From positions 1-46,563 of IMG/VR virus record IMGVR_UViG_2721755658_000005: a stretch of DNA of 46,563 bases, one strand, 5' to 3'. Positions 1 through 45,195 of the stretch are shown piece by piece (within the stretch, counting starts at the first letter, position 1; every line of letters starts with the position of its first letter). Position numbers and translations under genes: made by a program. Under the pieces are notes generated by a model that saw only the letters and a program-made list of their open reading frames with translations, was not told the DNA's origin and searched no databases. This stretch comes from a virus. Taxonomy: Duplodnaviria; Heunggongvirae; Uroviricota; Caudoviricetes.

Positions 1-443
1 TGAAACGTAAAACACTGCCTCTGCTGGCACTGGTTGCCACCACTCTGTTTCTGAGCGCCTGCGATGACAGAAGTGATGAACTGAAGGCCATCAGCAAATT
101 CAAGGACCTCACTCCGCCGCGCTTCAGCGATGTGGTCAGCCGCCAGGATGATGTCAGCGAAGAATGGTCACAGGTTGGCTTCTCATCTGGTCTCACCCTG
201 CAGGTCTTACGTACCCGTGAGTCGCCCGATGGCTGCGAGGGCGGTAGTTACTACTACCTCGCGGATATGCAGGAAAAAACCGTCCAGCCGCTGATGAATG
301 CGCTTTGTATTGCCGATAACATCAAACTGGAATACCAGGAGGTGACGGACCCGTATACCAAAGAAAGATACTTTGAGTACGCCCATGACGGCAAACTGAT
401 GGGGCGACTGCTGATACCCTCAAACCCTGAGAACCACGAATAA
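1..443 (+). CDS. Putative lipoprotein of CP4-type cryptic element, 5' end cut by window edge
   Basis: Frame continuous with ORF 132..443; upstream in-frame translation reads KRKTLPLLALVATTLFLSACDD, a signal peptide with lipobox LSAC; the start codon's A lies just outside the window. Confidence 0.5.
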   Translation, partial: KRKTLPLLALVATTLFLSACDDRSDELKAISKFKDLTPPRFSDVVSRQDDVSEEWSQVGFSSGLTLQVLRTRESPDGCEGGSYYYLADMQEKTVQPLMNALCIADNIKLEYQEVTDPYTKERYFEYAHDGKLMGRLLIPSNPENHE

Positions 444-466
444 AAACAACGATAAAGGAGACAGAA

Positions 467-934
467 ATGACAATAGATTCACTAAGCCGGTTTGTACTGG
501 CATGTTCACTGTTTACCAGCTTTACAGCCTCTGCGGTTCCCGGATTCTGGCAGCAGGGCTATGGCCAGGGCAATACGGAATACAGCGTGACCGATACCAG
601 TGGGAAGATGTTTACCATCAACTGTACTGGAAATCCTGACCAGAATGGTTTCTACCAGCATTCAGTTTTTCTGACCCTGACGGATAACAGAATGGTCAGT
701 TCGCACGATGATGGCACCACAGTCACCGTGGTGATGGACCATAAGCAATATGCCATTCCCTCAACCCTTGGCTGGCGTAACGGCGATAACGCCTGGTATG
801 ACTTCATTATGGATATCCGTAAGACCGGGCAGTTTGACGTTTACGTCAATGACCGTAAAGCGGGGACTTTCACTGTGGACCTGAAGAACGCAGAGAAAGT
901 TCTGCCCACTCCCGGAGACTGCGGTAACGACTGA
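467..934 (+). CDS. Exported hypothetical protein (N-terminal signal peptide)
   Basis: 155-aa ORF with hydrophobic N-terminus [15 protein letters not shown]; followed by a hairpin plus T-run. Confidence 0.5.
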
Positions 935-958
935 AAGCCGTTCCTCCTTACGCAAACC

Positions 959-995
959 AACCCCGACAGCCATCAGGCTGCCGGGGTTTTCTTTT
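959..995 (+). terminator. Rho-independent terminator candidate
   Basis: GC-rich hairpin ccccgacagcc...ggctgccgggg followed by ttttctttt. Confidence 0.45.
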
Positions 996-1010
996 ATCAG
1001 GAGCCCGAAA

Positions 1011-1250
1011 ATGTCCCAATCCGTGTTACTGCCACCGGGGCCTTTCACCCGGAGACAAGCGCAAGCGGTCACTACCACGTACAGCAATATCACCCTCGAA
1101 GACGACCAAGGCAGTCACTTCCGCCTTGTGGTTCGAGACACTGAAGGCCGGATGGTCTGGCGGGCATGGAACTTTGAACCCGATGCCGCTGAAAGTCTTA
1201 ACCGCTACATCCGCACCTCTGGCATCCGTACAGGCACCTCCACCCGCTGA
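1011..1250 (+). CDS. DUF905-like small protein (YkfF/YfjW-type, CP4 cryptic prophage family)
   Basis: 79-aa ORF at the position conserved upstream of the antirestriction gene in CP4-type elements; family assignment from memory. Confidence 0.4.
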
Positions 1251-1345
1251 CCGCGAAGCATTTACCCGCACATTTCACCTCCCCGAACACGCTTTATTCC
1301 CCCATTTGCCAGCCATCGCCGCTGGCGTTTTTTATTAACGGAGAC

Positions 1346-1810
1346 ATGCCCATGACAACACAGACGCAGTACGGCCTCGCACCCGCTAACCAATCAGAAT
1401 TTGAACTGACCGTCACGCAGGTACCCGACGAACAGCGTATCGATTTCTGGCCGCAACACTTTGGCACTATCCCGCAGTGGACAACCCTGGAACCGCGTAT
1501 TTTTGCCTGGATGGACCGCTTCTGTTCGACCTACAGCGGTGGTATCTGGTCCTTTTACACCCTCAGCAATGGCGGGGCGTTTATGGCTCCCGAGTCTGAC
1601 AATGATGAGACATGGCGTCTGTTTAATTGCCTGAACGGCAACGATGCCCAAATGAGTGCAGAAGCCGCAGGTATTGCTGTCTGCCTGATTGCGTACAGCC
1701 ATCACGCCTGTCGCACCCAATGCGATGCCATGACTGAACACTATTACCGCCTGCGGGACTACGCCCTGCAGCATCCAGAGGCCCACGCCATTCTGCGTAT
1801 TATCGACTGA
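1346..1810 (+). CDS. Antirestriction protein (ArdB/KlcA family, YafX/YfjX-like)
   Basis: 154-aa product with the conserved gene order antirestriction - RadC - DUF987 - antitoxin - toxin. Confidence 0.7.
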   Translation: MPMTTQTQYGLAPANQSEFELTVTQVPDEQRIDFWPQHFGTIPQWTTLEPRIFAWMDRFCSTYSGGIWSFYTLSNGGAFMAPESDNDETWRLFNCLNGNDAQMSAEAAGIAVCLIAYSHHACRTQCDAMTEHYYRLRDYALQHPEAHAILRIID

Positions 1811-1825
1811 CCGAAGGAGCAACAG

Positions 1826-2302
1826 ATGAAACAGCTTTCCTTTTTACCCGGCGAGATGACGCCACAGGACCGGTGTCTCATTCAGCGGGCGCTCAGGGCT
1901 CTGGACCGCCACCTGCATGAGCCCGGCGTAGCCTTCACCTCTACCCACGCCGTACGTGAATGGCTGCGACTGCATATGGCCGCGCTTGAGCGGGAAGAGT
2001 TCCGGGTGTTGTATCTGGACAACCAGAATCAGTTGATTGCCCATGAAACGCTCTTCATCGGCACGATTAACCGCACCGAGGTGCATCCCCGGGAGGTGGT
2101 CAAACGTGCTCTGCACTTCAACGCGGCGGCGGTGATACTCGCGTACAACCATCCTTCTGGCGAGACAACACCCAGCCAGGCAGACAAAGCCCTCACGCAG
2201 CGACTGGTACAGGTGCTTCAGTTGGTGGATATCCGCGTCCCTGACCATCTGATTGTCGGCGGCAGGCAAATCTATTCGTTCGCAGAACACGGTTTGCTGT
2301 GA
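1826..2302 (+). CDS. RadC-like JAB-domain protein (YeeS/YkfG/YfjY family)
   Basis: 158-aa product with HxH-containing JAB/MPN-like core (AYNHPSGE) typical of RadC-like proteins. Confidence 0.7.
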   Translation: MKQLSFLPGEMTPQDRCLIQRALRALDRHLHEPGVAFTSTHAVREWLRLHMAALEREEFRVLYLDNQNQLIAHETLFIGTINRTEVHPREVVKRALHFNAAAVILAYNHPSGETTPSQADKALTQRLVQVLQLVDIRVPDHLIVGGRQIYSFAEHGLL

Positions 2303-2532
2303 GGTATGATATGAAAATTATCAGTAAACGCCGGGCAATGACGATATACCGCCAGCATCCTGAGTCCCGAATCTTTCGCTACTGCAGTGGAAAATATCAG
2401 TGGCACGGTAGCATCTGCCATTACACCGGCAGGGACGTTCCGGATATCGCAGGTGTCCTCGCGGTATACGCCGAACGCCGCCAGGACCGCAACGGGCCTT
2501 ATGCCTGCCTGATGAGCATCACTCTGAACTGA
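2299..2532 (+). CDS. DUF987 protein (YeeT/YkfH/YfjZ-like)
   Basis: 77-aa ORF overlapping the radC-like stop, in the conserved position before the CbeA antitoxin. Confidence 0.6.
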   Translation: MRYDMKIISKRRAMTIYRQHPESRIFRYCSGKYQWHGSICHYTGRDVPDIAGVLAVYAERRQDRNGPYACLMSITLN

Positions 2533-2552
2533 CAATACAAAGGAGAGTCGTT

Positions 2553-2870
2553 ATGACTCACATCACATGGGGCCTGCAGCGGAATATCACGCCGCGCCTG
2601 GGAGCCCGTCTGGTGCAGGAGGGGAACCGGTTGCATTATCTGGCTGACCGGGCCAGCATCACCGGCAAGTTCAGTGACACCGAATGCCGGAAGCTGGATG
2701 AAACATTCCCGCACTTTATCCGCCAGATGGAATCGATGCTGACCACCGGTGAAGTCAGCCCCCAACATGCCCACTGCGTCATCATGTACCACAACGGTTT
2801 CACCTGTGAAGCCGACACCCTTGGCAGTTGCGGTTACGTGTACATCGCCATTTATCCCACCCAGCGCTAA
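2553..2870 (+). CDS. CbeA-family type IV antitoxin (YeeU/YafW-like)
   Basis: 105-aa product with C-terminal [16 protein letters not shown], characteristic of YeeU/CbeA antitoxins. Confidence 0.8.
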
Positions 2871-2890
2871 TAACTTTCACGAGAGCAAAC

Positions 2891-3232
2891 ATGAAAACTT
2901 TGCCTGCAACAACTCAGCGGGCGGTGAAGCCCTGCCTGTCACCCGTGGCTGTCTGGCAAATGCTACTGACACGCCTGCTGGAACAGCACTATGGTCTCAC
3001 CCTCAACGACACACCGTTCAGTGAGGAACGTGTTATACAGGAACATATCGATGCCGGGATCTCGCTGGCTGATGCCGTGAATTTTCTGGTGGAAAAATAC
3101 GAACTGGTGCGTATCGACAGGAAGGGATTTAACTGGCAGGAACAATCGCCTTATCTTCAGGCTGTCGATATTCTGCGAGCGCGGCAGGCAACTGGCTTGT
3201 TGCAGCAAAGCCGTAGCAACGTAGTACGATGA
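2891..3232 (+). CDS. CbtA-family type IV toxin (YeeV/YkfI/YpjF-like)
   Basis: Starts [43 protein letters not shown], the canonical CbtA-family N-terminus; ATG at 2891 lies inside the longer tracked ORF 2828..3232. Confidence 0.8.
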
Positions 3233-3619
3233 ACATTGCGTACAACCTTCCCGATTTACATTTCTGAACTTCCTCCCTTGTTTACCTATTGCGTAATGCG
3301 CCTGCTGCTACCCGGCTGGCGCGTTATCTTTTTACGGACAAACCATCATGCAACCAGAAGGTGAAGTATTAACCGATCATAATGAGCTAATTTGTTCAAG
3401 CTTTATTGAACACATTGCCAACACATTGAATTTAGGAGTGGTGTAGACATGGACAACTAAACCTGCAGCCACGGAGGTATAGCGAGTGAAGCCCTATCCG
3501 ACCTTTTTGGTCAGTAGATAAGATTGATCTTCGTTGATAGAATTTACTTACATCAGCAGTTACATGAAAATAATTTTTGGTGGGAAAAAGATAAGACACT
3601 ACGTAACTATTTGATTTCT

Positions 3620-3665
3620 TGGTGCCGATAATAGGAGTCGAACCTACGACCTTCGCATTACGAAT
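3620..3665. repeat. attL: 46-bp direct repeat identical to the 3' end of tRNA-Thr (prophage boundary)
   Basis: tggtgccgataataggagtcgaacctacgaccttcgcattacgaat is identical to 45120..45165. Confidence 0.85.
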
Positions 3666-4080: not shown

Positions 4081-5793
4081 CTAATTGGTCTCTATAATTG
4101 AGCTTAATTCGTTAATGAGCAGGTGAGGGCTCATTTGAGTTAAGTCATACTGCCGCCCCAATTTCTCTTGCATTCCTCCTCGTATTTTCTTTAATAAATA
4201 TTTGCCTTTAATGTTATTAACTGATGTCGGAACTTGGTTTCCAAATAATGTTAGGTGTCGAGGGCATGCTTCCAGTCTCCCCTTATATAAATTATATTTA
4301 ATCACCTCTCTTTTGGATTGAAAATCAGACTGGATGACAACATGATTTTGTGCGGCTATATCAGTAATCCATGTTTGTATATCTTGCACAGAAGAGCCTG
4401 TAACATGAGATAAATGCTCTATTCTGGTAAAATAACTCTCAATATCACTACCTTCAGTAATGAATGGAATGGCGCCACCTCTTTGAATTTCTGCTTTTAC
4501 TATATCTACTTCTTCATCAGTCATAAAATCGCGGTCACGATGAATTATAACCTTGCAATTAGGGGACATTTCCTTAAGAAGGTCAGCAGATACAATTGCT
4601 CCTTGCACATTTGTGCATGTTTTGTAGCTATAGACTGCAGTTCTCTCCATATCAAAACCATTATATTGTAAAAGGGCCTTGAAATATTTTTTATCTCTAT
4701 CTTCAGTGAGAAATATATTCTCCACAACTCCTTCAGTTACTCTATCCAAGTCATTTAAAGCTCCTAAATCTAAGAACATTGATATTTTGTCCAAATCCAT
4801 GCCTTGATTCTGAACATTACCATCTTTCATCCAAATAAAATTTGCCTCTCCATACAATGAATCAATTATATGTTTGCTATGAGTGGAAAGTATAACTTGA
4901 GTTTCTGATTTGTTATTTTCTGATATTAAACTCAATGAGTCAGTGAGAATATATTGATTATCAGGGTGAAGATGAGAATCCGGTTCATCTAAGAGTAATA
5001 ATTTAGGTTTGAAATATACTATATATGCAAATATCTGTAATGTTTGAAGTAATCCAGTTCCCGCCAACTCGATAGGGTAATTTTTCCCACTTGCATTTTC
5101 TTTAAAATTAACGGTTAGATAAGTATCTTTATCCTCTTTGAAATCCACTTCGATTTCTATATCTGGAAATACAACTTGCAGCATGCTATTGAGATTTACC
5201 AAGTGGTTATCTTTGTTCAGATAGTATATGACATTCCTTAAGTATAAATTTGCATCACCACTTGCCACTCCTCTTCTAACTATTGCTGGCGATTTTAATT
5301 CTTCCTTCTGTGAGATACCAGCCAGACCAGGGACATATATACTAAAGAGATTTTTTTCATCGGTGATTACTGAACCGAAGCCGGTATAATCACCGGTTCT
5401 TTCACATGACATATTTCCATGATTTCGTCCCTTAGATATAATTATATTGTATTCTAATTGTCGACCAGCAAGATCATCATATCCAAAAAGACTCAACACA
5501 CTTTGATTGCCAGGCGACCTCGAATTCTTATAAGGTTCGCCGTTCTTTAAAACAGTGAAGTCTGGGGTGATATTATACATTAAAAGTTCAGTAGAGAATG
5601 TTTGTTGACTTTGTTGCCGAGCGGCAATAGCTGCGCATACTGAAAAATGTATAGCTTGCAGAATACTGCTCTTACCTGAACTATTTGCCCCTACTAATAC
5701 ATTTATATCACTAAGGGTGATTTCTGCTGTGTCAATTTTTTTGAATTTACTAACAGACAAAGACTTAATGAACATTTTCTTTTCCTTTTTCAA
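4081..5793 (-). CDS. OLD-family-like ABC-type ATPase with C-terminal TOPRIM-like region; candidate phage-exclusion protein
   Basis: Walker A GANSSGKSS, Walker B LLLLDEPDSHLHP, H-loop-like LSTHS; C-terminal acidic motifs FLTEDRD and IIHRDRD; gene visibly AT-rich compared with flanking DNA. Confidence 0.6.
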   Translation of the reverse strand: MKKEKKMFIKSLSVSKFKKIDTAEITLSDINVLVGANSSGKSSILQAIHFSVCAAIAARQQSQQTFSTELLMYNITPDFTVLKNGEPYKNSRSPGNQSVLSLFGYDDLAGRQLEYNIIISKGRNHGNMSCERTGDYTGFGSVITDEKNLFSIYVPGLAGISQKEELKSPAIVRRGVASGDANLYLRNVIYYLNKDNHLVNLNSMLQVVFPDIEIEVDFKEDKDTYLTVNFKENASGKNYPIELAGTGLLQTLQIFAYIVYFKPKLLLLDEPDSHLHPDNQYILTDSLSLISENNKSETQVILSTHSKHIIDSLYGEANFIWMKDGNVQNQGMDLDKISMFLDLGALNDLDRVTEGVVENIFLTEDRDKKYFKALLQYNGFDMERTAVYSYKTCTNVQGAIVSADLLKEMSPNCKVIIHRDRDFMTDEEVDIVKAEIQRGGAIPFITEGSDIESYFTRIEHLSHVTGSSVQDIQTWITDIAAQNHVVIQSDFQSKREVIKYNLYKGRLEACPRHLTLFGNQVPTSVNNIKGKYLLKKIRGGMQEKLGRQYDLTQMSPHLLINELSSIIETN

Positions 5794-5822
5794 TGAAAGG
5801 TGTAAAACTTTAACTCATCATT

Positions 5823-6107
5823 TTAGTTGTTAACATTCAAAATCATAAACTGATTCTCTATTTTACCAATGAATAGCAGTCCTATCAGAGTAAAAATAGT
5901 GTTAGATATTTTTCTTACATCTGAATCTGAGAAATATTCGGATTCTTTATAGCAATTATTCCATATGTCGAGTTCTCTAAAATCATAAGCTAAATGAGCA
6001 ATTTTTCCCCAATCTTCATTTACTATATGTTCAGCCATTGTAAAAAAATCACTCTTAGTCGGAATGTCTATTCTCATTGTTACTTGGCCTATTTTTTCAT
6101 TGCTCAC
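5823..6107 (-). CDS. Small hypothetical protein, upstream partner of the ATPase (likely co-transcribed)
   Basis: 94-aa AT-rich ORF ending 30 bp upstream of the ATPase start; hydrophobic stretch TIFTLIGLLFIGKI. Confidence 0.4.
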   Translation of the reverse strand: MSNEKIGQVTMRIDIPTKSDFFTMAEHIVNEDWGKIAHLAYDFRELDIWNNCYKESEYFSDSDVRKISNTIFTLIGLLFIGKIENQFMILNVNN

Positions 6108-6306
6108 ATATATAACTATATGATATTTATATTAAAACTCCAACATTAAGTTTCGGCTTTCTTCAAGTAAACTACATAGCACGATGTAAGCAACTTCCGC
6201 TTTTGGCACATAGCAGTCCTAGAGATACTGGCGTAAAGCCATGGAGGATCGGTGGGAGGAGGTAAAAATCCTCTCATGCAAAAAATACGCAAAATCGATA
6301 ACAGTT

Positions 6307-6386
6307 GGAAATCATTCAATACTCGCACTATCGGAAGTTCACCAGCCAACCGCAGCACGTTCTTGCATACGACATGCCTGCGGTTT
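6307..6386. repeat. Copy A of a ~80-bp repeat family with hairpin-forming 3' part
   Basis: About 88% identical to 8982..9061; its 3' half recurs at 10044..10087. Confidence 0.7.
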
Positions 6387-6535
6387 CAACTCCCGCCAGC
6401 TCCACCAATCATGATTGGACGGTTAAGGACAACACCAATAAAAACAGGAAGTTAGCAGTCTCAGCAGGACACCGACCAGACGGTGAGGAGACAAAAAAGG
6501 ATACGCAAAGGAGCCGCGGCTCCCGAGTGACAAAA

Positions 6536-6560
6536 AAGCCCGCTTATGCGGGCTTTTTTG
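6536..6560. terminator. Bidirectional rho-independent terminator candidate
   Basis: aagcccgc-ttat-gcgggctt hairpin flanked by an A-run on one side and a T-run on the other; lies just downstream of the Bro-N gene stop. Confidence 0.6.
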
Positions 6561-6576
6561 TTTTTTTCCCTCAAGC

Positions 6577-7338
6577 TCACTGACGTGTTCTTGCCTCAAC
6601 TACTTTCTGGTATATAGCGATAGCTTCATCAACCAAAGCTAATGGATAGCAAGAATTTATATTCAATCCGGAGGGGCACTTAATTCTTTCTGCTCCACGT
6701 TCACTACGCAATTTTTCACACCATTGCCAAAGTTCCTCAACTGAATAGGTATCCAAACCTAACTCCATCAATCGTTGAGGAACACTTCTGAACTGAGACA
6801 AATCTCTTAAACTTTCTAACGAGTTAACTTTTAGTTCAACTTGGTTTACTCTACTTTCTAACTCTTCACGTTTTTCTATTTCCATTACCAATGCTTGAAC
6901 CGTCTGCTGCAGACTGTTAGCAAAAGCACTCAGTTCTGAACGTTCTTGTTTAGGTGGCGGAGGATATACACCAAATTCACGAATAGACGGAAGGACCTGA
7001 TGAAAAAGCCAGCGTTGGAATTTTTTCCCCGCAGCAGTAGTATCCTGAGCAAGTACTCTATATAGACCTGGTTCAGTAAGAAATACCTCAGAGATAGTTT
7101 CACCATCCACGACAAGAGAAACATTCCTAAACTCATCTGGATCTAAAGTTTTTATTACCGCTTTTATTACAGTGAGCAAGCTTTGAGAAGTCTTTCCATC
7201 CAGTTTTCTGTTCTCAGCAGAAAGCGTTCTTAGCACATCTGAAAGTGAAACAAAAATCTGCCCTTTTTCATTCATGCTACGGATATAATTTTCTCCACAC
7301 TCTCCTTCGTAGCATAATTGTAACAAATTCTTTTGCAC
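6577..7338 (-). CDS. Bro-N domain protein (phage antirepressor-like)
   Basis: N-terminal region ends in the Bro-N signature EPGLYRVLAQ...FQRWLFHQVLPSIREFGVY; coiled-coil C-terminus. Confidence 0.65.
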   Translation of the reverse strand: MQKNLLQLCYEGECGENYIRSMNEKGQIFVSLSDVLRTLSAENRKLDGKTSQSLLTVIKAVIKTLDPDEFRNVSLVVDGETISEVFLTEPGLYRVLAQDTTAAGKKFQRWLFHQVLPSIREFGVYPPPPKQERSELSAFANSLQQTVQALVMEIEKREELESRVNQVELKVNSLESLRDLSQFRSVPQRLMELGLDTYSVEELWQWCEKLRSERGAERIKCPSGLNINSCYPLALVDEAIAIYQKVVEARTRQ

Positions 7339-7671
7339 GCCATCCCCTCCTTTTTTTATGGATTATACATCCTATAAACATGTTGTCACCGAAAGGGAAA
7401 AGCATAAACCCAATTTATGTTCCACAAGATGTTCAAAAATCAAACAACCATATAGCTGAGGAGCACAAAAGAGCAAAAGTTTACCAACCCCATATATCCA
7501 TACAGCACATAAAATTGACACTACATGTGGTATTTTTTAAGTTACGCCTTGCACCATTTCATGGTTTTATGTAGATTGTCATCACACGCTGAGATTAAAA
7601 AATTCTACAATTTTTGTTGATCTTGAGTTTGGTTTTTAGTATAAGTGAGCATGGATTGTAGGAGGCGCAAC

Positions 7672-8022
7672 ATGGTAACTAGCTTTGGTAAGACTCTCAG
7701 AAAAATGAGAATAGACCGGGGTATGGTGCTCAAAAATATGGCTGATCTGTTAGGCGTTAGTTCGGCTTACTTATCCGCCATTGAATTAGGCAAAAGAGCT
7801 ATACCGGACTCATTAGTAAATACGATTGCAACAACTTTTGAGCTTAGCGGACAAGACATCATCAATCTCAAGAAACAGGCAGAGATTTCTCAACCGTCCA
7901 TTAAGGTTGATATGTCGGATGCAAATGAGCAGAACAAAGAACTAATGCTTGTTTTTGCTCGTAAATTTAAGGACCTGAGTCCAGAGCAACTCGATAAGCT
8001 TAATAAAATGTTAAAGGACTGA
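7672..8022 (+). CDS. XRE-family helix-turn-helix transcriptional regulator
   Basis: HTH region MADLLGVSSAYLSAIELGKR; aggagg RBS 6 nt upstream of the ATG at 7672 (tracked ORF starts at GTG 7645). Confidence 0.7.
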   Translation: MVTSFGKTLRKMRIDRGMVLKNMADLLGVSSAYLSAIELGKRAIPDSLVNTIATTFELSGQDIINLKKQAEISQPSIKVDMSDANEQNKELMLVFARKFKDLSPEQLDKLNKMLKD

Positions 8023-8025
8023 ATA

Positions 8026-8559
8026 ATGATTGCGAAACGAGAACTTGGCCATCGCGTTTCACCTCTCAGCACCAGCATGATTAAATCATACGCTCATCGT
8101 CTGAGAGACGTTCTTCAGATATCAAATCACACATATCTGAGACTGGATGTATTACTAGAAGGTCTTATGGCCTCAGAAAGCATTGAGCTAGAAATTGTTG
8201 AAGATCATGAACTGCCCAAACGCTATGCAGTGACTTATCCAGATAAGAACAAAATTGTTTTACAGCGATCTGTTTACGATGCAGTGTGCAATGGTGAGAA
8301 CCATGCGAGATTCACTGTTGCGCATGAACTTGGTCATTTAGTCATGCATCGCAATCAAAGTATCTATGCACGTAATAAGACTAGTGGAGGGCATAAAATC
8401 TATGAAGACAGCGAATGGCAAGCAGATGTTTTTGCAAGCCACTTCTTAATTGACTCAAGACTAGTTTTGCCCACAATGACTGTTGAAGATATAAGCAAAA
8501 CATTTGGTGTCAGTCAACAAGCGGCTGAAACCTGGATGAGAAAAAATGCAAAAAGATAA
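8026..8559 (+). CDS. ImmA/IrrE-family zinc metallopeptidase
   Basis: HEXXH motif in TVAHELGHLVMH; starts 3 nt after the HTH gene stop, the classic HTH-ImmA pair. Confidence 0.7.
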   Translation: MIAKRELGHRVSPLSTSMIKSYAHRLRDVLQISNHTYLRLDVLLEGLMASESIELEIVEDHELPKRYAVTYPDKNKIVLQRSVYDAVCNGENHARFTVAHELGHLVMHRNQSIYARNKTSGGHKIYEDSEWQADVFASHFLIDSRLVLPTMTVEDISKTFGVSQQAAETWMRKNAKR

Positions 8560-8684
8560 CGAAAAAGCCAGCGAACCGCTGTCGCTGGCTTCTCCTATCG
8601 TAAGCAAATACGAAAAACTTGGCGGTTGTGAGTATACGCTTACCTTAGGTTTTGTCAACAGCGAAACTTTACAGGTAACACGAT

Positions 8685-8828
8685 ATGACCATTGAAAAAG
8701 CTGTATCTGAGGAATACATCACAATTTACCGTCCTTTTATTACGGTCAAAGGTAAACGGATCTTTGCTCGTCAAAAAGGCTTGGCAGCCTTTCCTATCAA
8801 AATTCCTGCCTCTAAGTATCGAGGATAA
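8685..8828 (+). CDS. Small ORF (47 aa), hypothetical or gene remnant
   Basis: ATG-initiated frame MTIEKAVSEEYITIYRPFITVKGKRIFARQKG; below the ORF-track length cut-off; weak RBS. Confidence 0.25.
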   Translation: MTIEKAVSEEYITIYRPFITVKGKRIFARQKGLAAFPIKIPASKYRG

Positions 8829-8981
8829 TCTTTGCTAATCTTAGGCCCTTTTCTAGGGCCTTTTATTACACTTCTGTTACGCGCACCACAGATAGAGTTT
8901 CAGCTAAAACTTTTGTTCATACCTAGGAGTCTGCTGACGAGTGGTTTGTTCACTAATAAACACGTAAAAACGGTAACGGCT

Positions 8982-9061
8982 GGACATCATTCAATATTCG
9001 CACTATTGGAAGTTCACCAGCCAGCCACAGCACGTTCTTGCATACAACGTGCCTGCGGTTT
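8982..9061. repeat. Copy B of the ~80-bp repeat family
   Basis: Aligns to 6307..6386; hairpin gcacgtt-cttgcatac-aacgtgc followed by a T-run. Confidence 0.7.
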
Positions 9062-9153
9062 TTGAGACCGGTCCGATCATCAAACGAAACATAAAATTAG
9101 CTCACACTATGAGGAAAAGTATCTTTTTTTACTATGTAAATTCAAAGAATTAG

Positions 9154-10023
<870 letters not shown>

Positions 10024-10043
10024 GTCTTTAAGTGATAAGCATA

Positions 10044-10087
10044 AACCGCAGCACGATCTTCTTCCATACGACGTGCTACGGTTTCAT
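10044..10087. repeat. Copy C (partial, diverged) of the repeat family; likely bidirectional terminator between convergent genes
   Basis: aaccgcagcacg...cgtgctacggtttcat matches the 3' hairpin half of copies A and B. Confidence 0.55.
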
Positions 10088-10638
10088 TTATCTCCGACCG
10101 GAAACTTCTTATACAGTGTCGATATACCAACATCATAGATGATCGCCACCTTCTGGCGAGGGACGCCTGATGCAATTAATCGCCCGGCCTGCGCCCATTG
10201 TTCTGGTGTAAGTTTGGGACGACGTCCACCAATTCGTCCCTGTGCGCGAGCAGCGTCCAGTCCAGCTTTTGTTCGTTCAACAATCAGTTCTCGTTCCATT
10301 TCAGCCAGGGCACCCATCATATGAAAGAAAAAACGCCCCATCGGTGTGCTGGTATCAATAGCATCCGTCAGGCTGCGAAAATTAACGCCACGTTCGCGCA
10401 ACTCCTCAACCAGAATGACCAGATGCCGCATACTACGCCCCAGCCGATCCAGCTTCCAGACAACCAGAGTGTCACCTGCCGATAATGTCCTGAGCAGTTT
10501 TTTCAGTCCCGGCCTTTCGGACTTTGTACCGCTTATCTTGTCTTCAAAAATCAGCTCGCATCCTGCACAGTTCAGCGCATTACGTTGTAGATCTGTGTTC
10601 TGGTCATTTGTTGACACACGTACATAGCCAATAAGCAT
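10084..10638 (-). CDS. Serine DNA invertase (Pin/Gin/Hin family)
   Basis: N-terminus MLIGYVRVSTNDQNTDLQ with catalytic-serine context; C-terminal HTH; adjacent to the invertible tail-fibre segment. Confidence 0.85.
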   Translation of the reverse strand: MLIGYVRVSTNDQNTDLQRNALNCAGCELIFEDKISGTKSERPGLKKLLRTLSAGDTLVVWKLDRLGRSMRHLVILVEELRERGVNFRSLTDAIDTSTPMGRFFFHMMGALAEMERELIVERTKAGLDAARAQGRIGGRRPKLTPEQWAQAGRLIASGVPRQKVAIIYDVGISTLYKKFPVGDK

Positions 10639-10664
10639 GGTAGATCTCCCTGACAAAAGCAGGA

Positions 10665-11159
10665 ATGATGCCATTTGCTCGTTATTTCTGCATTTTCATA
10701 AACGTTGGTTTGGGAGAATCGGCAAAACGGAATGTGGGCAACGGGGAAAACCAAATCCCTGATATGTCTTTCTGGACGGTTACTGGTGGCAATGGAAATT
10801 TTGTGATTCGTCAACCTGACGGGCTAATCATTCAGATGGTTACTGTAAGTATAAGCGGCCCGGTGGCGATGAATGGAATGACTGATAATGCTTATGCCAT
10901 TACAGGTTCTAATAAGTCTTATATTGCCACAGCCACATTGCCCTTTGTATTTCCTAATAAGGTGCTGGGCGTTATCCCTCTGGTATCAACAACAGCTTAT
11001 GGTGGTGTATCCAGTAATATTACAGGTTCATACGCGACTGCGGTTTGTTCTTTTGCCGCTGTCAGGGGGAATAATACGATTGTGTTCAAAGTCGACAAAC
11101 CACTGAATGCAGCCTTTCCTTCAGATACCAGCGTCTCAGCGTTAATCATTGGACGGTAA
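10665..11159 (+). CDS. Alternative tail-fibre C-terminal variable segment (expressed after inversion)
   Basis: The crossover site falls at a GLGE junction motif shared with the active fibre gene; no independent N-terminal constant region. Confidence 0.55.
   Translation: MMPFARYFCIFINVGLGESAKRNVGNGENQIPDMSFWTVTGGNGNFVIRQPDGLIIQMVTVSISGPVAMNGMTDNAYAITGSNKSYIATATLPFVFPNKVLGVIPLVSTTAYGGVSSNITGSYATAVCSFAAVRGNNTIVFKVDKPLNAAFPSDTSVSALIIGR
10683..10708. repeat. Invertase crossover site (left inverted repeat of invertible segment)
   Basis: ttttcataaacgttggtttgggagaa; its right half is the reverse complement of the right half of 12677..12702; resembles gix/hix-type sites. Confidence 0.6.
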
Positions 11160-11161
11160 GA

Positions 11162-11605
11162 ATGAACTCAGTATTCTTTTCACCCGGAAGTAAAAGTTTT
11201 TATCTGCAAGAATTGTTTCCAGAATATGAGGATGCGGGAACGCTTCCTGATGATGTTATTGAAATTACCAGAGAAACATATGAGCAATTTCTTGGGCTGC
11301 ATCCAGAAGGGAAAGAAATTGGCGCTGACAGTTCAGGACGGCCAGTATGGATTAATTCCCCACCCCCTTCAAAAGAGGATGAGGTGTTGACGGCTGAAAT
11401 GAAAAAAATATCTTTGGTTTCTGAAGTCAATACCTACATCAATACTCATCAGTGGCCTGGCAAAGCGGCGATTGGTCGTCTGAAAAGTGAGGAACTGGCG
11501 CAATATAATTTGTGGCTGGATTATCTGGACGCACTGGAACTGGTTGATACCTCCAGTGCTCCAGATATTGAATGGCCTACGCCTCCGGCAGTTCAGGCCA
11601 GATGA
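11162..11605 (+). CDS. Tail fibre assembly protein (alternative orientation)
   Basis: 147-aa ORF directly after the alternative fibre segment, inside the invertible region. Confidence 0.6.
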   Translation: MNSVFFSPGSKSFYLQELFPEYEDAGTLPDDVIEITRETYEQFLGLHPEGKEIGADSSGRPVWINSPPPSKEDEVLTAEMKKISLVSEVNTYINTHQWPGKAAIGRLKSEELAQYNLWLDYLDALELVDTSSAPDIEWPTPPAVQAR

Positions 11606-12179
11606 CATCCGGCGCGGTGCTGGTATCTGTTGCCGTCACCGTGTCAATGTAATCCAGCACAGCGTTAAGGCGAGTGATTTCTGCTTGCGTCAGCTGCCGC
11701 CCGGCCTGCAATTTCAGCTGAATCAGACTGATGGAAGCCATAGCAGCATCAATCAGCGACTGGCGCTGTGCTTCTGCCACGTCTACTGCGGCGCTATGCT
11801 GTGCCTCAGTATCGGTCACCCATTTCTCACCATCCCATTTATCGAATGGCGTTAACGGGGCGATAGTAGTTGTATTTTCAGAGTAATCACCCGGAGCTGT
11901 GATTTCTTTTGATTCTCCTGTTTCAGTGCTATATACCGTTTCACCGCGATGGTCTGGCACATATTCCCATGAGTTAAAATCTGCAGAACGGCAGATTGCA
12001 TAACCAGCTTTATGTGTGCCGGGCGCATCGGTACAGGAATTGGCAGGAATACCCACCCCCACAGGCAGATACTCAACCGATGAGGATATGTATTCGCGGG
12101 TGTCGCCCCGGTAGTTGTACACAGTGATTTCACCTGCCACGGTGGCAATAAACGCACTGTTTAATTTTGCTTTCGCCAT
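11577..12179 (-). CDS. Tail fibre assembly protein
   Basis: 200-aa ORF directly after the tail fibre gene, inside the invertible region. Confidence 0.6.
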   Translation of the reverse strand: MAKAKLNSAFIATVAGEITVYNYRGDTREYISSSVEYLPVGVGIPANSCTDAPGTHKAGYAICRSADFNSWEYVPDHRGETVYSTETGESKEITAPGDYSENTTTIAPLTPFDKWDGEKWVTDTEAQHSAAVDVAEAQRQSLIDAAMASISLIQLKLQAGRQLTQAEITRLNAVLDYIDTVTATDTSTAPDVIWPELPEA

Positions 12180-12979
12180 TATGCAGCCCTCACGATATAC
12201 GCAAATGCTAGGTTCCGTGGTCTGGTTTCTTTAATTAAAGAGGAGGCATCAGGTGAACTCACTGATTCAGCACCATTTCTTCCACCAGAGGTATAAGTAA
12301 AAACTCTTTCACTGTTAGACCAGTAATCCACACCAACTGTTTTTGCTGATGAAAAAATGGTTTCATCAGATATAACCTGTTCTATTCCATACGGGATATT
12401 AGTAACTGACCCCACTTTTGTAGGTATTCCATGATTATGAGAAATTACTGCATGCTCTTGATTCGTTAATAAAGTACGACCGCTATCCACTCCACGCCCG
12501 TCATCCCAGCCACGAATAAACTCACCACGTAAATCAGGTAATTTATTTGTCGGATAAGCCTTTGCCAGTTCCGGGTATTCTTCAGCAGAAAAAGCGGCAC
12601 CGTTGCATTTCAGCCAGCCTGTCGGCGGTGTGGCTGAAGGCCACGGAACAGGTACGCCAACGGGTAATGCTGAGCCTTCTCCCAAACCAAGGTTTTCAAG
12701 AGCCGTTTTCACCGTGCCATCCGATTTGATATCGCCAAACGGATTATTGCGGCTTAACAGCAGCGCACGAAGCGCGGTAAGCAGCTGGTCGTGCCGAGTC
12801 TTCTCAAGACTGGCACCGGATGCCTCCACCACGCTGCAAAGCTCCTCCTGCAACATGTCAAAGTAGTCATCATCCAGATCGGTGGCAGGTGTGCCGGTCT
12901 GGGGGTTACCACGGGTAAAACCGTTCTTACCCGCGCCGAACTTATCCTTCTGCGCGGTTTTAGTGTCTATGCGATGCAT
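12179..12979 (-). CDS. Tail fibre protein (constant N-terminus, invertible variable C-terminus)
   Basis: 266-aa product; crossover site 12677..12702 lies inside the gene at the GLGE motif. Confidence 0.7.
12677..12702. repeat. Invertase crossover site (right inverted repeat), inside the tail fibre gene
   Basis: ttctcccaaaccaaggttttcaagag; inverted relative to 10683..10708. Confidence 0.6.
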
Positions 12980-12982
12980 GGA

Positions 12983-13567
12983 TTACTCCGGATATTTAAA
13001 AATTACGTAGGTATGCGACGGGCAGAGTTTGTTAAGCACACACTCGACAACGGTGTCGCCCCATATACGCAGCGCGGAATCACAGGGATCGCCACATGTC
13101 ATCCAGGTGGTGTTGGTGGTGGCTGGCATGTTGACCTGCCAGTAATACCGCCATTCAGGCGCATTCACCGCGTCAGTACAGGCCGATGAGCAGGTGAACG
13201 TGCTTTTGTCGTATCGCGTGATGGTGGCATCTGGTCTGCCCAGGGCAGCAAGCTGTGCAAGATAAAAATCCTCGTTGATGCCGCCCGCCAGGTTAACCTT
13301 CGCATCCAGCCGTTGCTGACGCTGGCGAAGGGTCTGCGTTCCCGCCGGAATACATTCATCCGGCAGACCGCACAGACGCTCCCAGCGGTTTATCAGTTCG
13401 GTGGTGGTGCGCGGATCCAGCTCCCGCATCAGGGCATCCGCACGCTGATGAACACGGGTTAATGACGGTGCCGCACCGGCAATCGCCGGCTCGCTGGCTG
13501 ACCACGCCGGACCGGGCGGCAACAGTGCCGATAACAGGCGGATGTAATCATCGTTTGTCACGTCCAT
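12983..13567 (-). CDS. Baseplate/tail protein (Mu gp48-like, DUF2313-type)
   Basis: Position after the baseplate J gene in a Mu-like tail module. Confidence 0.55.
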
Positions 13568-14616
13568 GAAATCGTCCCCAGAACCGCCAGTTCATTTTTT
13601 GCAATGGAGATATTGTCCGCCGGTGCAAGCAACTGATGGCTGTATTCCCCGTTCGCACCGGAAATCGCTTCACTGATACGCGACACCTTCAGTTCTCCCT
13701 GCGGATAACCATCACGCAGCAGGAACGAACGCAACTCCGCAGTAATGGCGGCTCGTATTTCTGGTGTGTCCGGCGTCACGCGGATATGAAAATCCACCGT
13801 ATGTGCCACCGGCCTGAATACATACAAATCAGAGCCTGCCACCGGGGCCAGTGGCCCGATATGTTGTCTTGCTGCCGTTTCCGTTGATTCTTCCGGAATG
13901 GGATTAATCAGGTCACTGCTGGCAATCATCACACCGACAGTTCCCGTTCCCATCCAGTGACGGTATGTCCATGCGCGGGTAATGCCGGGCACTTCTTTAG
14001 CCCAGACGACATAGTCCCCGTCAGCCCCGCCCTGAGGTGTCCAGTAATACCGCTCAATGACGCGGGCGCGCCACGTTTCCAGCTCTTCAGTATCAAATCC
14101 ACCTGTCAGGGTATCTGCCACGCCGGAAGACGGCAGACCATTCACCGGCGTGACCAGGATTAATGACGTACCGTCGTCAGCGTTACCGACCGCGCCTGCA
14201 CTTGAGCAGGCGATCGGCACGCGCAGGACACCACCGGAGCTGGTTGCATCGGCAGTTGCCGTGTACTGAACCAGGTCATCGCGCTGAATAACACTCCCGG
14301 CAGTCACCTTCAGGCCATCACTGACACCTTCCCAGCGCATATACCCGCTGGCAGCCGTGGCCCCCTTGCGCGGACACCGTTTCATCGCAGCATGTCGCGC
14401 CAGCCAGGACTCATCGCACAGGTCAGGCAGCATGTTCATTGCCAGATAATCGATGTACCCGTAAACCGTATGCAGCGCCGCCGCATACACCTTTGCCCGC
14501 ACGTCTTCATCCATGCGCCGGAGCGTGTCGCTGACGTCCAGCCTGGCGAATAAATCGTTACGGAGCATACTGATATTTTCTGCCAGCGTCGGGCGCTGAA
14601 ATTCACTGTCCGCCAT
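13558..14616 (-). CDS. Baseplate J-like protein (Mu gp47-like)
   Basis: 352-aa product in the canonical position of the Mu-like baseplate cluster. Confidence 0.65.
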
Positions 14617-18041: not shown

Positions 18042-18572
18042 TTAGCGAGTCAGAAACAACGAATCTTTATACTTTTGCTGTTGTTCATTTAAATACTTAG
18101 CTGTTTCATCGCTGGCAAATGGAAATATTACCGTATTTTTAGGCATAGTAATTTCTTTTTTGTCCAGCGTCAGAGTAAACATAGGAACATACTGAGCAGA
18201 GTAACGCACCGCAGAAACGAGCTCTAGTTTAGACTCTTCAATAACACTTAAATTATCCAAGCTAACTTTCTCTTCATCTTTTTTCTTTGACGCATTTAAA
18301 GTTTTTATTACTTTATTTAATTTCTCCTGAAAATCCTCCTTAAAGTTTTCAGGATTGCCGTCGACAACAAGAATCTGTTCACCCTGATTATCTGGAAAAA
18401 TAATCTTTGCACTTATCAATTTATTTTCTTTATAAACATCACCAAGTTTTATGGCTCCTCCAGATAACTGAATAATATGTTCATCTTTAAAGGAGATGTT
18501 GCCAGAGATTATGAGAGATGAAAAAATAGCCGCTGCTCCAAGAATTACACTTGCTGTGATATAGCCTTTCAT
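18042..18572 (-). CDS. AT-rich exported/membrane-anchored hypothetical protein (moron in tail operon)
   Basis: N-terminal hydrophobic segment ITASVILGAAAIFSSLIISG; sits between the tape measure and gpN genes; has its own terminator. Confidence 0.55.
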   Translation of the reverse strand: MKGYITASVILGAAAIFSSLIISGNISFKDEHIIQLSGGAIKLGDVYKENKLISAKIIFPDNQGEQILVVDGNPENFKEDFQEKLNKVIKTLNASKKKDEEKVSLDNLSVIEESKLELVSAVRYSAQYVPMFTLTLDKKEITMPKNTVIFPFASDETAKYLNEQQQKYKDSLFLTR

Positions 18573-33231: not shown

Positions 33232-34251
33232 TTGGATAAGTTTGATGAGATTCATGTAGACATTGAATCTGAGCAGCAAGCCTTCGATTTGCTTGAAAGC
33301 TATCTTGATGGTTATGGTTTACCTGACAGTTTAAGTTTCAACGGATGGCCAAACCTTACCATCAGATTAACCGGTGAAAAATTCAACAGATCGCTAACAC
33401 CTTCAGTTATGAAGGGATTTGTTGAAATGCAAGCTCAAATCAACAAATCATATGCCCTTGCCAAGTACGGTGTCCCTGACGTCCGCAAACTGACCAAAGA
33501 AGAACTTGATGCCCTAGAAATAGAAGTTACGGTAGAACAGGGTTCTTCAATAGTAGAAATCAACATTGATGGCTTTTTAACCAAACTCACACAGGAACTT
33601 GTTGGTAAAATGAACGCAACTGAGATCATGTTTACTGTTCTCGGCGCAGCAGTCATCTGGGGCGGAGTAACAGTATTTAAACGGTTCTTGGACAACCGTA
33701 AAGATATTCGCCTTGCAGAAATTGCTAAGGATGGAGAGAAAGAACATCTCCGGACTATGCAGATCATGAGCGAGCAAGAAACTAAACGCCTGCGGGTTAT
33801 TTCAGAAATGATTGCGGAAAAACCACTTCTCGATAACATGGACCGTATGTCGTATGACGCTAAAACCCAAATGGTCAAATCCTTTGTGCGTTCAGATAAC
33901 GCTCAAATTGATGGCGTTACTATTGATTCTGAAATGGCGAAAGAGTTGGTTACGAATGCTCGTAGACGTTCATCAGAAATGAGGATTGATGGTATTTACC
34001 GAATTGAAGAAGTCAATAATACTGACCCAGAGAGTTTCAAAGTTAAGGTCCGACGCGTAGATACCGACCAACGTCTAACCTGCGTAGTTCAGGATGTTTT
34101 CCTTGATGAATCCGGAAACAAAGAAGCATTGCAGCGAGCTGAGTGGGAAAGAAAGCCTGTACATTTGAGCATTAACGCAAAACACGTCGATGGTGACATT
34201 AAGTCAGCAGTAATTCTCTATGTTCGAGATGTGGAACAAAAGCCCGAGTAA
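33232..34251 (+). CDS. Hypothetical single-pass membrane protein (moron between Q and lysis genes)
   Basis: 339-aa ORF with TTG start; central TM helix IMFTVLGAAVIWGGVTVF; opposite strand to the late operon; no recognised family. Confidence 0.5.
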   Translation: MDKFDEIHVDIESEQQAFDLLESYLDGYGLPDSLSFNGWPNLTIRLTGEKFNRSLTPSVMKGFVEMQAQINKSYALAKYGVPDVRKLTKEELDALEIEVTVEQGSSIVEINIDGFLTKLTQELVGKMNATEIMFTVLGAAVIWGGVTVFKRFLDNRKDIRLAEIAKDGEKEHLRTMQIMSEQETKRLRVISEMIAEKPLLDNMDRMSYDAKTQMVKSFVRSDNAQIDGVTIDSEMAKELVTNARRRSSEMRIDGIYRIEEVNNTDPESFKVKVRRVDTDQRLTCVVQDVFLDESGNKEALQRAEWERKPVHLSINAKHVDGDIKSAVILYVRDVEQKPE

Positions 34252-40506: not shown

Positions 40507-41133
40507 ATGGAAACGGTTGGTCAGCGTATAAAAGCTCTGAGAAGAGTTACCGGAACGTCCCAGAAAGAATTGGGTAAATTTTGTGGAGTAAGCGACGTTG
40601 CTGTGGGGTACTGGGAGAAAGACATCAATACCCCTGGTGGGGAGGCACTTTCGAAATTAGCGAAGTTCTTCAATACGTCAATAGATTACATTCTTTATGG
40701 TGCTGAGTTTGAAGGCAAACTCGTCACAAACATGCGCAGAGTTCCTGTAATATCGTGGGTTCAGGCTGGGCAGTTTACTGAGTGCAGGGCAGCAGAAGTG
40801 TTTAGTGAAGTGGACAAGTGGGTAGATACATCATTAAAGATTGGTGATAACTCATTTGCATTAGAGGTTAAAGGTGACTCCATGACTAACCCTAATGGCC
40901 TCCCAACAATACCAGAAGGCGCAACAGTGATTGTAGATCCAGATGCAGAACCTCGTCATGGAAAAATAGTCATCGCTCGACTTGATGGAACAAACGAAGC
41001 TACAGTAAAAAAATTAGTCATCGATGGCCCTCAAAAGTTTTTAGTGCCATTAAATCCTCGGTATCCCAACATCCCTATCAATGGTAATTGCCTTATCATT
41101 GGTGTAGTCAAAGGAGTTCAATACGAACTCTAA
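40507..41133 (+). CDS. CI-like repressor with S24 LexA-type autopeptidase domain
   Basis: N-terminal HTH; C-terminal catalytic serine context GDSM and lysine in ATVKKL. Confidence 0.85.
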   Translation: METVGQRIKALRRVTGTSQKELGKFCGVSDVAVGYWEKDINTPGGEALSKLAKFFNTSIDYILYGAEFEGKLVTNMRRVPVISWVQAGQFTECRAAEVFSEVDKWVDTSLKIGDNSFALEVKGDSMTNPNGLPTIPEGATVIVDPDAEPRHGKIVIARLDGTNEATVKKLVIDGPQKFLVPLNPRYPNIPINGNCLIIGVVKGVQYEL

Positions 41134-43715: not shown

Positions 43716-44065
43716 TGGAGCCATACAGCCTCACACTCGATGAGGCCTGTCATTTTCTCAAGATATCCAGACCGACTGCCATTAACTGGATACGCACAGG
43801 GCGTCTTCAGGCAACACGCAAAGATCCCACTAAGAATAAATCTCCTTACCTCACAACACGACAAGCCTGCATTGCGGCTCTTCAGTCTCCGCTGCATACT
43901 GTCCAGGTGAGCGCGGGTGATGGCATAACAGAGGAAAGAAAATGTCACTCTTCCGCAGAGGTGAAATATGGTACGCCAGTTTCACATTGCCGAACGGTAA
44001 AAGATTTAAACAGTCTCTTGGAACAAAGGACAAAAGGCAGGCGACAGAACTCCATGACAAGCTAA
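43715..44065 (+). CDS. Excisionase-like DNA-binding protein (AlpA/Xis-type HTH)
   Basis: [33 protein letters not shown] is a typical Xis/AlpA HTH; the frame runs on past the integrase start, so the true stop is uncertain. Confidence 0.5.
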
Positions 44066-45105
44066 AGGCTGAAGCATGGCGGGTCAGCAAACTTGGTGAA
44101 ATACCTGATATAACGTTCGAGGAAGCGTGTGTCAGGTGGCTTGAAGAGAAAGCACATAAAAAATCACTGGACGATGACAAAAGCCGGATCGGATTCTGGC
44201 TTCAACATTTCGCAGGAATGCAACTAAGAGACATTACTGAATCAAAAATTTATTCAGCAATGCAGAAAATGACGAACCGGCGTCATGAGGAAAACTGGAA
44301 ACTCAGGGCAGAAGCATGCAGAAAAAAAGGGAAACCTGTTCCAGAATACACGCCAAAACCAGCGTCCGTTGCAACGAAGGCTACGCATCTTTCATTTATA
44401 AAGGCCCTACTAAGAGCCGCAGAGCGTGAATGGAAAATGCTGGATAAGGCACCAATTATTAAAGTGCCTCAACCAAAGAATAAACGGATCCGCTGGCTGG
44501 AGCCCCATGAAGCACAAAGGCTGATTGATGAATGTCCGGAGCCATTAAAGTCTGTTGTTGAATTTGCACTGGCAACAGGCTTAAGACGCTCGAACATCAT
44601 CAACCTTGAATGGCAACAAATAGATATGCAGCGCCGGGTGGCATGGATAAACCCGGAAGAGAGTAAATCAAACCGCGCAATTGGCGTTGCGCTGAATGAT
44701 ACTGCATGTCGCGTATTGAAAAAACAAATCGGGAATCATCACCGTTGGGTATTTGTGTACAAGGAAAGCTGTACCAAACCAGACGGAACGAAAGCGCCAA
44801 CAGTAAGGAAGATGCGGTATGACGCAAACACAGCCTGGAAAGCGGCGCTGAGACGGGCTGGTATTGATGATTTCAGATTTCACGACTTGAGACACACCTG
44901 GGCAAGTTGGCTGGTTCAAGCCGGAGTCCCGTTGTCAGTGTTACAGGAAATGGGAGGCTGGGAGTCTATCGAAATGGTTCGTCGATATGCTCACCTTGCA
45001 CCTAATCACCTTACCGAACACGCACGGCAAATAGACTCGATCCTGAACCCATCGGTCCCAAATTTGTCCCAGTCAAAAAATAAGGAAGGTACTAATGATG
45101 TGTAA
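43942..45105 (+). CDS. int: Tyrosine integrase (phage integrase family)
   Basis: N-terminus [28 protein letters not shown]; C-terminal R...H..R...Y context (HDLRHTWAS...RYAHL); ends 15 bp from tRNA-Thr. Confidence 0.9.
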
Positions 45106-45119
45106 CTTATTGATTTACA

Positions 45120-45195
45120 TGGTGCCGATAATAGGAGTCGAACCTACGACCTTCGCATTACGAATGCGCTGCTCTACCAACTGAGCTATATCGGC
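45120..45195 (-). tRNA. thrW: tRNA-Thr (anticodon CGU)
   Basis: Reverse complement reads GCCGATATAGCTCAGTTGGTAGAGCAGCGCATTCGTAATGCGAAGGTCGTAGGTTCGACTCCTATTATCGGCACCA with anticodon loop TTCGTAA. Confidence 0.9.

Follow-up and report, generated by a model that had tools for sequence, protein, structure and literature searches.

A Pin-type invertible tail-fibre segment in a complete-looking prophage of the SfV family

The window analysed here is a stretch of 46,563 nucleotides, positions 1 to 46,563 of the IMG/VR virus record IMGVR_UViG_2721755658_000005 (Caudoviricetes). It carries a tail-fibre locus in which the gene for a Pin-type DNA invertase adjoins a segment bounded by two inverted 26-bp sites. 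The closest relative of this arrangement is the P segment of e14, the cryptic prophage of Escherichia coli K-12 (stfP-tfaP / tfaE-stfE' / pinE), which has the same gene order.

Tail-fibre cassettes, crossover sites and invertase

The gene layout was derived from the listing of open reading frames (ORFs) and from Pfam scans (Table 1). On the minus strand, downstream of two baseplate genes of the Mu type, Baseplate_J (13558..14616) and Mu gp48/YmfQ (12983..13567), lies a fibre operon with a tail-fibre gene and the gene of its assembly protein (chaperone). The plus strand carries an alternative cassette that faces this operon and consists of a fibre C-terminus with a chaperone gene of its own. 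An initial annotation made from the sequence alone had described the locus in this way, and the ORFs together with matches to the Pfam families Collar, Caudo_TAP and Gp53-like_C confirm the description.

The fibre protein of the expressed orientation is a composite with respect to e14, residues 1-105 being 95% identical to StfP and residues 96-266 being 54% identical to StfE. Among PDB sequences it matches the T4 gp37 tip and short tail fibres. Its chaperone shares 88.5% identity with e14 TfaE. In the silent cassette the reading frames of both the fibre tip and the chaperone are intact. The tip matches phrog_12714 (E 7.5e-48) as well as tail-fibre phrogs, and the chaperone is 56% identical to e14 TfaP. 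The two chaperone genes overlap by 29 bp, tail to tail. A 16-nt inverted repeat with 81% complementarity (11515..11530 / 11643..11658) spans the segment centre and originates from the homologous C-terminal parts of the chaperones.

A repeat finder returned a single long inverted repeat at the locus, 10700..10718 versus 12677..12695, with one mismatch in 19 nt. The repeat belongs to two 26-bp sites in inverted orientation, each composed of 12 + TT + 12 bp with identical cores, which is the form of Mu gix, P1 cix and the e14 sites. The left and right sites agree at 20 of 26 positions. In the fibre reading frame the inner half of both sites encodes G-L-G-E, with the left codons at 10707..10718. 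The initial annotation had likewise placed two inverted 26-bp sites at a GLGE junction. Its right site was exact, but its left site, given as 10683..10708, was displaced by 10 bp to the left and these coordinates miss the GLGE codons, although the motif is present at both true sites. This shift is the sole error in that annotation.

For comparison, sites of e14, P1 and Mu were all drawn from database records. The left site is identical to the e14 site adjoining pinE at 26 of 26 positions, and the right site agrees with the e14 site within stfP at 25 of 26. In the P1 record the annotated crossover sits between the two central T. With both arms in coding sequence for a common G-L-G-E motif, the repeat might be due to chance or result simply from two homologous fibre genes facing each other, without site-specific recombination. 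However, when the 19-nt pattern was searched with at most three mismatches it occurred at 2 places in the 46.5-kb window against 0.02 expected, and none of 100 shuffles gave two matches. The repeat therefore did not arise by chance, and there is no third site. Moreover, similarity between the two fibre C-termini ends directly past the crossover site, the sites share the gix/cix form and are nearly or fully identical to those of e14, and natural inversions have their breakpoints within them (L005/L006, L003/L004 and L011, see below). The site statistics and the natural inversions refute an origin by chance or by-product, to which we assign a negligible probability. A multiple-inversion system of the p15B Min or Rci shufflon kind was also considered and rejected: there is no third site in the 46.5 kb at up to three mismatches, and the recombinase is of the serine type whereas shufflons use a tyrosine recombinase.

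The initial annotation had further claimed that a serine invertase adjoins the segment, which is borne out by the Resolvase and HTH_7 domains, the retained Ser9 and 94.0% identity to K-12 PinE; identity to P1 Cin and Mu Gin is 80.4% and 76.6%, respectively. The ORF extends to 10674, but homology with PinE, Gin and Cin places the start of the gene at the ATG at 10638. Residues 1-181 align with the Gin structures 3UJ3/4M6F (E 3e-93). Ser9, in the motif MLIGYVRVS, aligns with the S9A position of 3UJ3, and Arg7, Asp64, Arg65 and Arg68 are likewise in place. His106 and Met114, positions that are altered in the crystallised Gin variants, are wild type. The enzyme differs from active PinE by 11 conservative substitutions, none of them at catalytic residues, and sequence comparison revealed no inactivating change. 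With its resolvase domain, helix-turn-helix (HTH) and intact catalytic residues, the invertase belongs by sequence to the enhancer-dependent serine invertases (Hin/Gin/Cin/Pin). Members of this family act on two 26-bp sites with 12-bp half-sites around a 2-bp core, by attack of a catalytic serine and 180-degree subunit rotation, and require an enhancer of ~65 bp that carries a Fis site at each end and lies about 100 bp from one recombination site (PMC3798978). Dependence on Fis and on DNA supercoiling is a further, biochemical property of the family.

A candidate enhancer is located within the 5' part of the invertase gene. The P1 record places the Cin enhancer at nt 19-90 of cin, and the corresponding bases in the window, 10549..10620, are identical at 55 of 72 positions to this enhancer, at 54 of 72 to Mu gin and at 70 of 72 to e14 pinE; the same bases encode the conserved protein N-terminus. 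Two candidate 15-bp Fis cores of the form G-N13-C (10603..10617 and 10554..10568) are 49 bp apart from centre to centre and lie about 85 bp from the left site. The spacing of the Fis sites in Hin is 48 bp.

Table 1. Positions of the features discussed in the text, with the crossover sites of related systems (aa, amino acids)
Feature	Position	Strand	Details
Invertase-proximal 26-bp site	10693..10718	+	TTTTCATAAACG TT GGTTTGGGAGAA; central TT at 10705..10706
Invertase-distal 26-bp site, within fibre gene	12677..12702	-	CTCTTGAAAACC TT GGTTTGGGAGAA; central dinucleotide 12689..12690
Invertible segment	10705..12690		1,986 bp including both central dinucleotides; 1,982 bp between them
Fibre gene, expressed orientation	12179..12979	-	266 aa; Pfam Collar, E 1.3e-15
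Constant N-terminal fibre part	12691..12979	-	outside segment
Variable collar-type C-terminal fibre part	12179..12688	-	inside segment
Tail-fibre assembly (chaperone) gene, expressed orientation, TfaE type	11577..12179	-	200 aa; Caudo_TAP, E 5.5e-32
Silent alternative fibre C-terminus, gp53-like	10707..11159	+	150 aa; Gp53-like_C, E 5e-05
Silent chaperone gene of alternative cassette	11162..11605	+	147 aa; Caudo_TAP, E 2.7e-28
DNA invertase gene, pinE type	10084..10638	-	184 aa; Resolvase PF00239, E 5.5e-52; HTH_7 PF02796, E 5.7e-13
Candidate recombinational enhancer	10549..10620	-	codons 7-30 of invertase gene; homology to enhancer annotated within P1 cin
Read-in ORF, pin side	10665 or 10668..11159	+	ATG start outside segment; leader MMPFARYFCIFINVGLGE + gp53-like domain
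e14 site adjoining pinE	L002 6606..6631		TTTTCATAAACG TT GGTTTGGGAGAA
e14 site within stfP	L002 4779..4804		CTCTCGAAAACC TT GGTTTGGGAGAA
P1 cixL			CAATCCTAAACC TT GGTTTAAGAGAA
Mu gix			TTATCCAAAACC TC GGTTTACAGGAA
Integrase	43942..45105		
CI-like repressor	40507..41133		
Aldehyde-dehydrogenase-family (proA-like) gene	45310..46563		adjoining thrW
Antirestriction protein	1346..1810		
RadC-like protein	1826..2302		
CbeA antitoxin	2553..2870		
CbtA toxin	2828..3232		
AAA ATPase and neighbour	in 4081..10023		570 aa, AriA/NsnB/Old-like matches; neighbour 94 aa, matching no family
BRO-N protein	in 4081..10023		
CapH/CapP-like HTH + M78 peptidase pair	in 4081..10023		
PD-T4-3 GIY-YIG protein	in 4081..10023		PADLOC, E 2.7e-140

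Orientation of the segment in public genomes

Inverting the segment in silico preserves the fibre reading frame. The constant 97 residues then continue into SAKRNVGNGENQ..., giving a fibre of 247 aa followed by the 147-aa chaperone, and this pair replaces the 266-aa collar-type fibre and the 200-aa chaperone. The exact 247-aa and the exact 266-aa fibre proteins are both present in public E. coli assemblies. Contig L011 (GCA_050686095.1), which encodes the 247-aa form, equals the in-silico inverted window at 8,743 of 8,744 bases. Aligned with the native window it shows 1,443 mismatches, which start at 10719, immediately past the left site. A second contig, L012, has 12 mismatches to the inverted window. 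A search of 5,426 complete E. coli genomes, in which a match had to span at least 80% of the 3-kb query, gave 35 genomes with the native and 17 with the inverted form.

Pairs of closely related genomes locate the exchange more precisely. Over 6,001 bp, an exact 1,956-bp inversion is the sole difference between the sequences of a human isolate from Viet Nam (L005) and a broiler isolate from China (L006). L003 and L004 come from isolates collected at a single site in Ecuador; over 5,923 bp, the inversion and one single-nucleotide polymorphism in pinE are all that separates them. In this pair the inner half-site has a polymorphic base (GGGAGAA versus GGGGGAA) that follows the segment when it inverts, whereas the outer half-sites keep their positions, and the exchange is therefore confined to TTGGTTTGG, including the central TT. 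For the P segment of e14, inversion at TTGGTTTGGGAGAAGG by PinE, PinQ and PinR is reported from experiments, and 33% of 562 deposited genomes were found inverted (PMC12529663).

Three independent lines, namely the exact proteins, the flipped contig and the genome pairs, thus establish that both orientations of the segment exist in nature, with breakpoints within the sites. The combination that the initial annotation had named as speaking against a switch, a single orientation and an inactivated invertase, is not what we found, given the flipped contig L011, the inverted genome pairs and the intact enzyme.

The proposed switch and its relation to known systems

We are highly confident that the locus is a switch of tail-fibre cassettes driven by a Pin-type, enhancer-dependent serine invertase, and that the e14 P segment is seen here where it originally belonged, in an intact myovirus prophage of the SfV family. 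A minus-strand late operon runs through the baseplate genes into the fibre gene, of which the first ~97 codons are constant and end at the right 26-bp site. By analogy with Hin and Gin, Pin dimers would bind both 26-bp sites and assemble with a Fis-bound enhancer in the 5' part of pin. Pin would cut both sites at the central TT, and rotation of one half by 180 degrees would invert the 1,986-bp segment. Dependence on Fis and the enhancer as well as the cleavage chemistry are presumed from Mu, P1, e14 and Hin. The orientation sequenced here would give the 266-aa collar-type fibre with the 200-aa TfaE-type chaperone, the other orientation the 247-aa gp53-like fibre with the 147-aa chaperone. A fixed late promoter and a fixed fibre N-terminus would in this way be joined to either tip-plus-chaperone cassette. 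A population of lysogens would release virions with two receptor-binding tips, resulting in a host-range switch. The correspondence with the Mu G and e14 P segments that the initial annotation had proposed extends to every element: the enzyme, the sites, the constant N-terminus and two C-termini, each with its own chaperone.

Several points count against this interpretation. The window holds one orientation, and the evidence for flipping comes from public assemblies other than this strain, where opposite orientations could stem from rare events. A different Pin-family invertase encoded by the host could also invert the segment in trans, as reported for e14 (PMC12529663). The enhancer is assigned by homology, which is confounded by coding constraint; we call it a candidate because the same bases encode the most conserved part of the invertase. 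A simple promoter and terminator scan of 9900..13100 picked up no sigma-70-like pin promoter, the counts being those expected by chance. The Gp53-like_C match of the silent tip scores 24.2 bits, slightly below the Pfam cut-off of 24.9 bits, and the 247-aa fibre found no match, and with it no structural relative by sequence, among PDB sequences. Recognition of different receptors by the two tips is putative, by analogy with Mu, P1, e14 and Hin.

The single orientation in the window, as in any assembly, and an enhancer function and pin promoter judged by homology and a simple scan would also suit a frozen relic, in which the sites and the gene look intact yet the strain no longer inverts the segment and carries the silent cassette as an evolutionary leftover. 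This explanation is very improbable. A near-identical prophage with 1 difference in 8.7 kb is found in the other orientation, which implies that the last inversion was very recent. Furthermore, the frames of the silent cassette and its chaperone have remained intact, and the few conservative differences from active PinE leave the catalytic residues unaffected. The switch is real and apparently active, and public assemblies alone reveal very recent flipping of the segment.

The likeness to e14 extends from gene order and the constant fibre part to the YmfQ baseplate protein, which is 98.5% identical, and to the chaperone genes, which overlap by 29 bp, tail to tail, in e14 as well. The distance between the central dinucleotides is 1,825 bp in e14 and 1,982 bp here, and the orientation sequenced here is opposite to that of the MG1655 reference. 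Beyond pin the window carries the PD-T4-3 GIY-YIG protein, whereas e14 has mcrA. Further, e14 is a 15-kb remnant, while the prophage described here is a complete one of ~41.5 kb at thrW. The two cassettes are not the same as in e14. The E-type cassette is kept but diverged: its collar-type tip is the counterpart of StfE (54% overall), with a near-identical collar domain and a diverged distal part. The P-type fibre tip has been replaced by unrelated sequence, and the silent tip has no significant similarity to the variable part of K-12 StfP (BLASTP E 0.21), though both are gp53-like. Judged from these alignments, the window holds a cassette variant of the e14 system and not the same allele. Cassette content is the only difference in the switch from e14, and its replacement within a conserved switch is the usual mosaicism of fibre genes.

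The Mu G segment has a comparable organization, with a constant Sc part, facing Sv-U and U'-S'v cassettes, an invertase downstream on the strand of the fibre operon, and Mu-type baseplate genes (gp45-48) upstream. The 26-bp sites share an AAACC-NN-GGTTT centre, and in both systems the junction encodes L-G-L-x-E. However, the Mu segment measures about 3 kb, its fibre has 504 aa with a far longer constant part, the central dinucleotide is TC instead of TT, and its variable cassettes have sequences unrelated to those here. Mu is also a transposable phage, whereas the phage in the window integrates at a tRNA gene. The C segment of P1 with Cin is the same switch with the same central TT and an enhancer annotated within the 5' part of the invertase gene, but it is 4.2 kb long, serves a fibre of about 1,000 aa and has cin at the opposite side with respect to the fibre operon. 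The Hin / H segment of Salmonella uses the same enzyme subclass and mechanism, with two 26-bp sites, a Fis-bound enhancer and subunit rotation (PMC3798978). Hin flips a promoter to switch flagellin genes, whereas the present locus keeps promoter and N-terminus fixed and exchanges the coding cassettes that follow them. In phage records labelled as P2-like from Escherichia or Salmonella (H1-H3), pin and parts of the segment are about 89% identical. These sequence matches suggest that the module of invertase and cassettes passes between myoviruses with unrelated backbones.

An ATG-initiated ORF that runs from the invertase side into the silent cassette is common to this prophage, e14 and Mu (L007 4526..4554). 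The leader of the read-in ORF in the window, MMPFARYFCIFINVGLGE, is nearly the same as that in e14, MPFACYFFIFINVGLGE. After inversion of the P segment in K-12, a pin-side ORF fused to a gp53-like cassette (StfE2) is reported to block adsorption of T2 (PMC12529663), and the segment may accordingly be viewed as a phage-defence switch of the host, instead of or besides one of host range, if the product of the read-in ORF is expressed in the lysogen and blocks adsorption of other phages. The window is in the equivalent state, with a gp53-like cassette on the pin-side ORF and a leader close to that of e14. The ORF is called as a gene by the annotation pipeline PGAP in relatives, and the neighbouring genes are defence cargo. 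Nevertheless, a role in defence is unlikely. The gp53-like domain of the window lacks detectable similarity to the K-12 one, so that blocking of T2 is not transferable, and the promoter scan found no promoter-like site beyond chance ahead of the read-in ORF. Mu has a similar read-in ORF as well, since Mup52 runs 29 nt past the G boundary, and we know of no defence role for it. Moreover, a complete phage needs fibres, and host-range switching explains enough.

A defence role is compatible with the classical switch and not exclusive of it. In a combined form, each flip would change both the host range of the virion and the resistance spectrum of the lysogen, with the product of the silent cassette acting as a decoy against competing phages. 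We give this form little credence; if true, what was claimed in 2025 for StfE2 of the cryptic e14 would apply as well to a live phage whose receptor-binding domain is another one.

A host-range switch of tail-fibre cassettes, the reading that we prefer, is of a known and ordinary type, and the locus is already annotated in RefSeq. The value of the present analysis lies mostly in correct annotation. The e14 P segment is seen here in its ancestral setting, a complete phage, and carries another pair of fibre tips. The locus could serve as a natural system for asking what the two short fibres bind, and could show whether the reported defence role of the silent-side ORF holds in a functional prophage.

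Prophage context and neighbouring genes

The prophage spans ~41.5 kb and has a 46-bp direct repeat at its ends (3620..3665 and 45120..45165). On the right, the repeat forms the 3' end of tRNA-Thr(CGT) at 45120..45195 (thrW), beside which the integrase gene lies. Its structural and packaging region is 96-98% identical to the Shigella phages SfV, SfII and SfI and to induced E. coli phages. With its att repeats, the integrase, the CI-like repressor and a full structural module, the prophage looks complete, and it belongs to the SfV family. The phage collection has no record with coverage of the 3-kb locus above 46%, and full-length matches lie in E. coli chromosomes. The RefSeq chromosome NZ_LR778151.1 (L001) contains the locus at 99.8% identity and is annotated there with pinE, two tail fibre assembly proteins, a tail fibre protein and a hypothetical protein.

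Past the left prophage end, window positions 1..3300 hold genes typical of a CP4-type integrative island, so that a single tRNA gene apparently hosts two stacked elements. The stretch from the prophage end to pin contains, at 4081..10023, a run of accessory genes that are probably anti-phage. At the position of the AAA ATPase, close relatives carry retron Ec48 (L001) or retron Ec67 (L003 and L004). Because these relatives hold retrons in place of the ATPase, the position looks like a variable cargo slot.

Two further ORFs stand out in the prophage. A 176-aa ORF at 18042..18572 on the minus strand, between the tape-measure and DNA-circularisation genes, belongs to phrog_5485 (function unassigned) and has no Pfam match; compared with the prophage in NZ_LR778151.1, which is otherwise collinear, its region is an insertion of 620 bp. 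A 339-aa ORF at 33232..34251 on the plus strand, which matches phrog_6191 (function unassigned, E 1.6e-152) and no Pfam family, is opposed to its neighbours and may be a moron.

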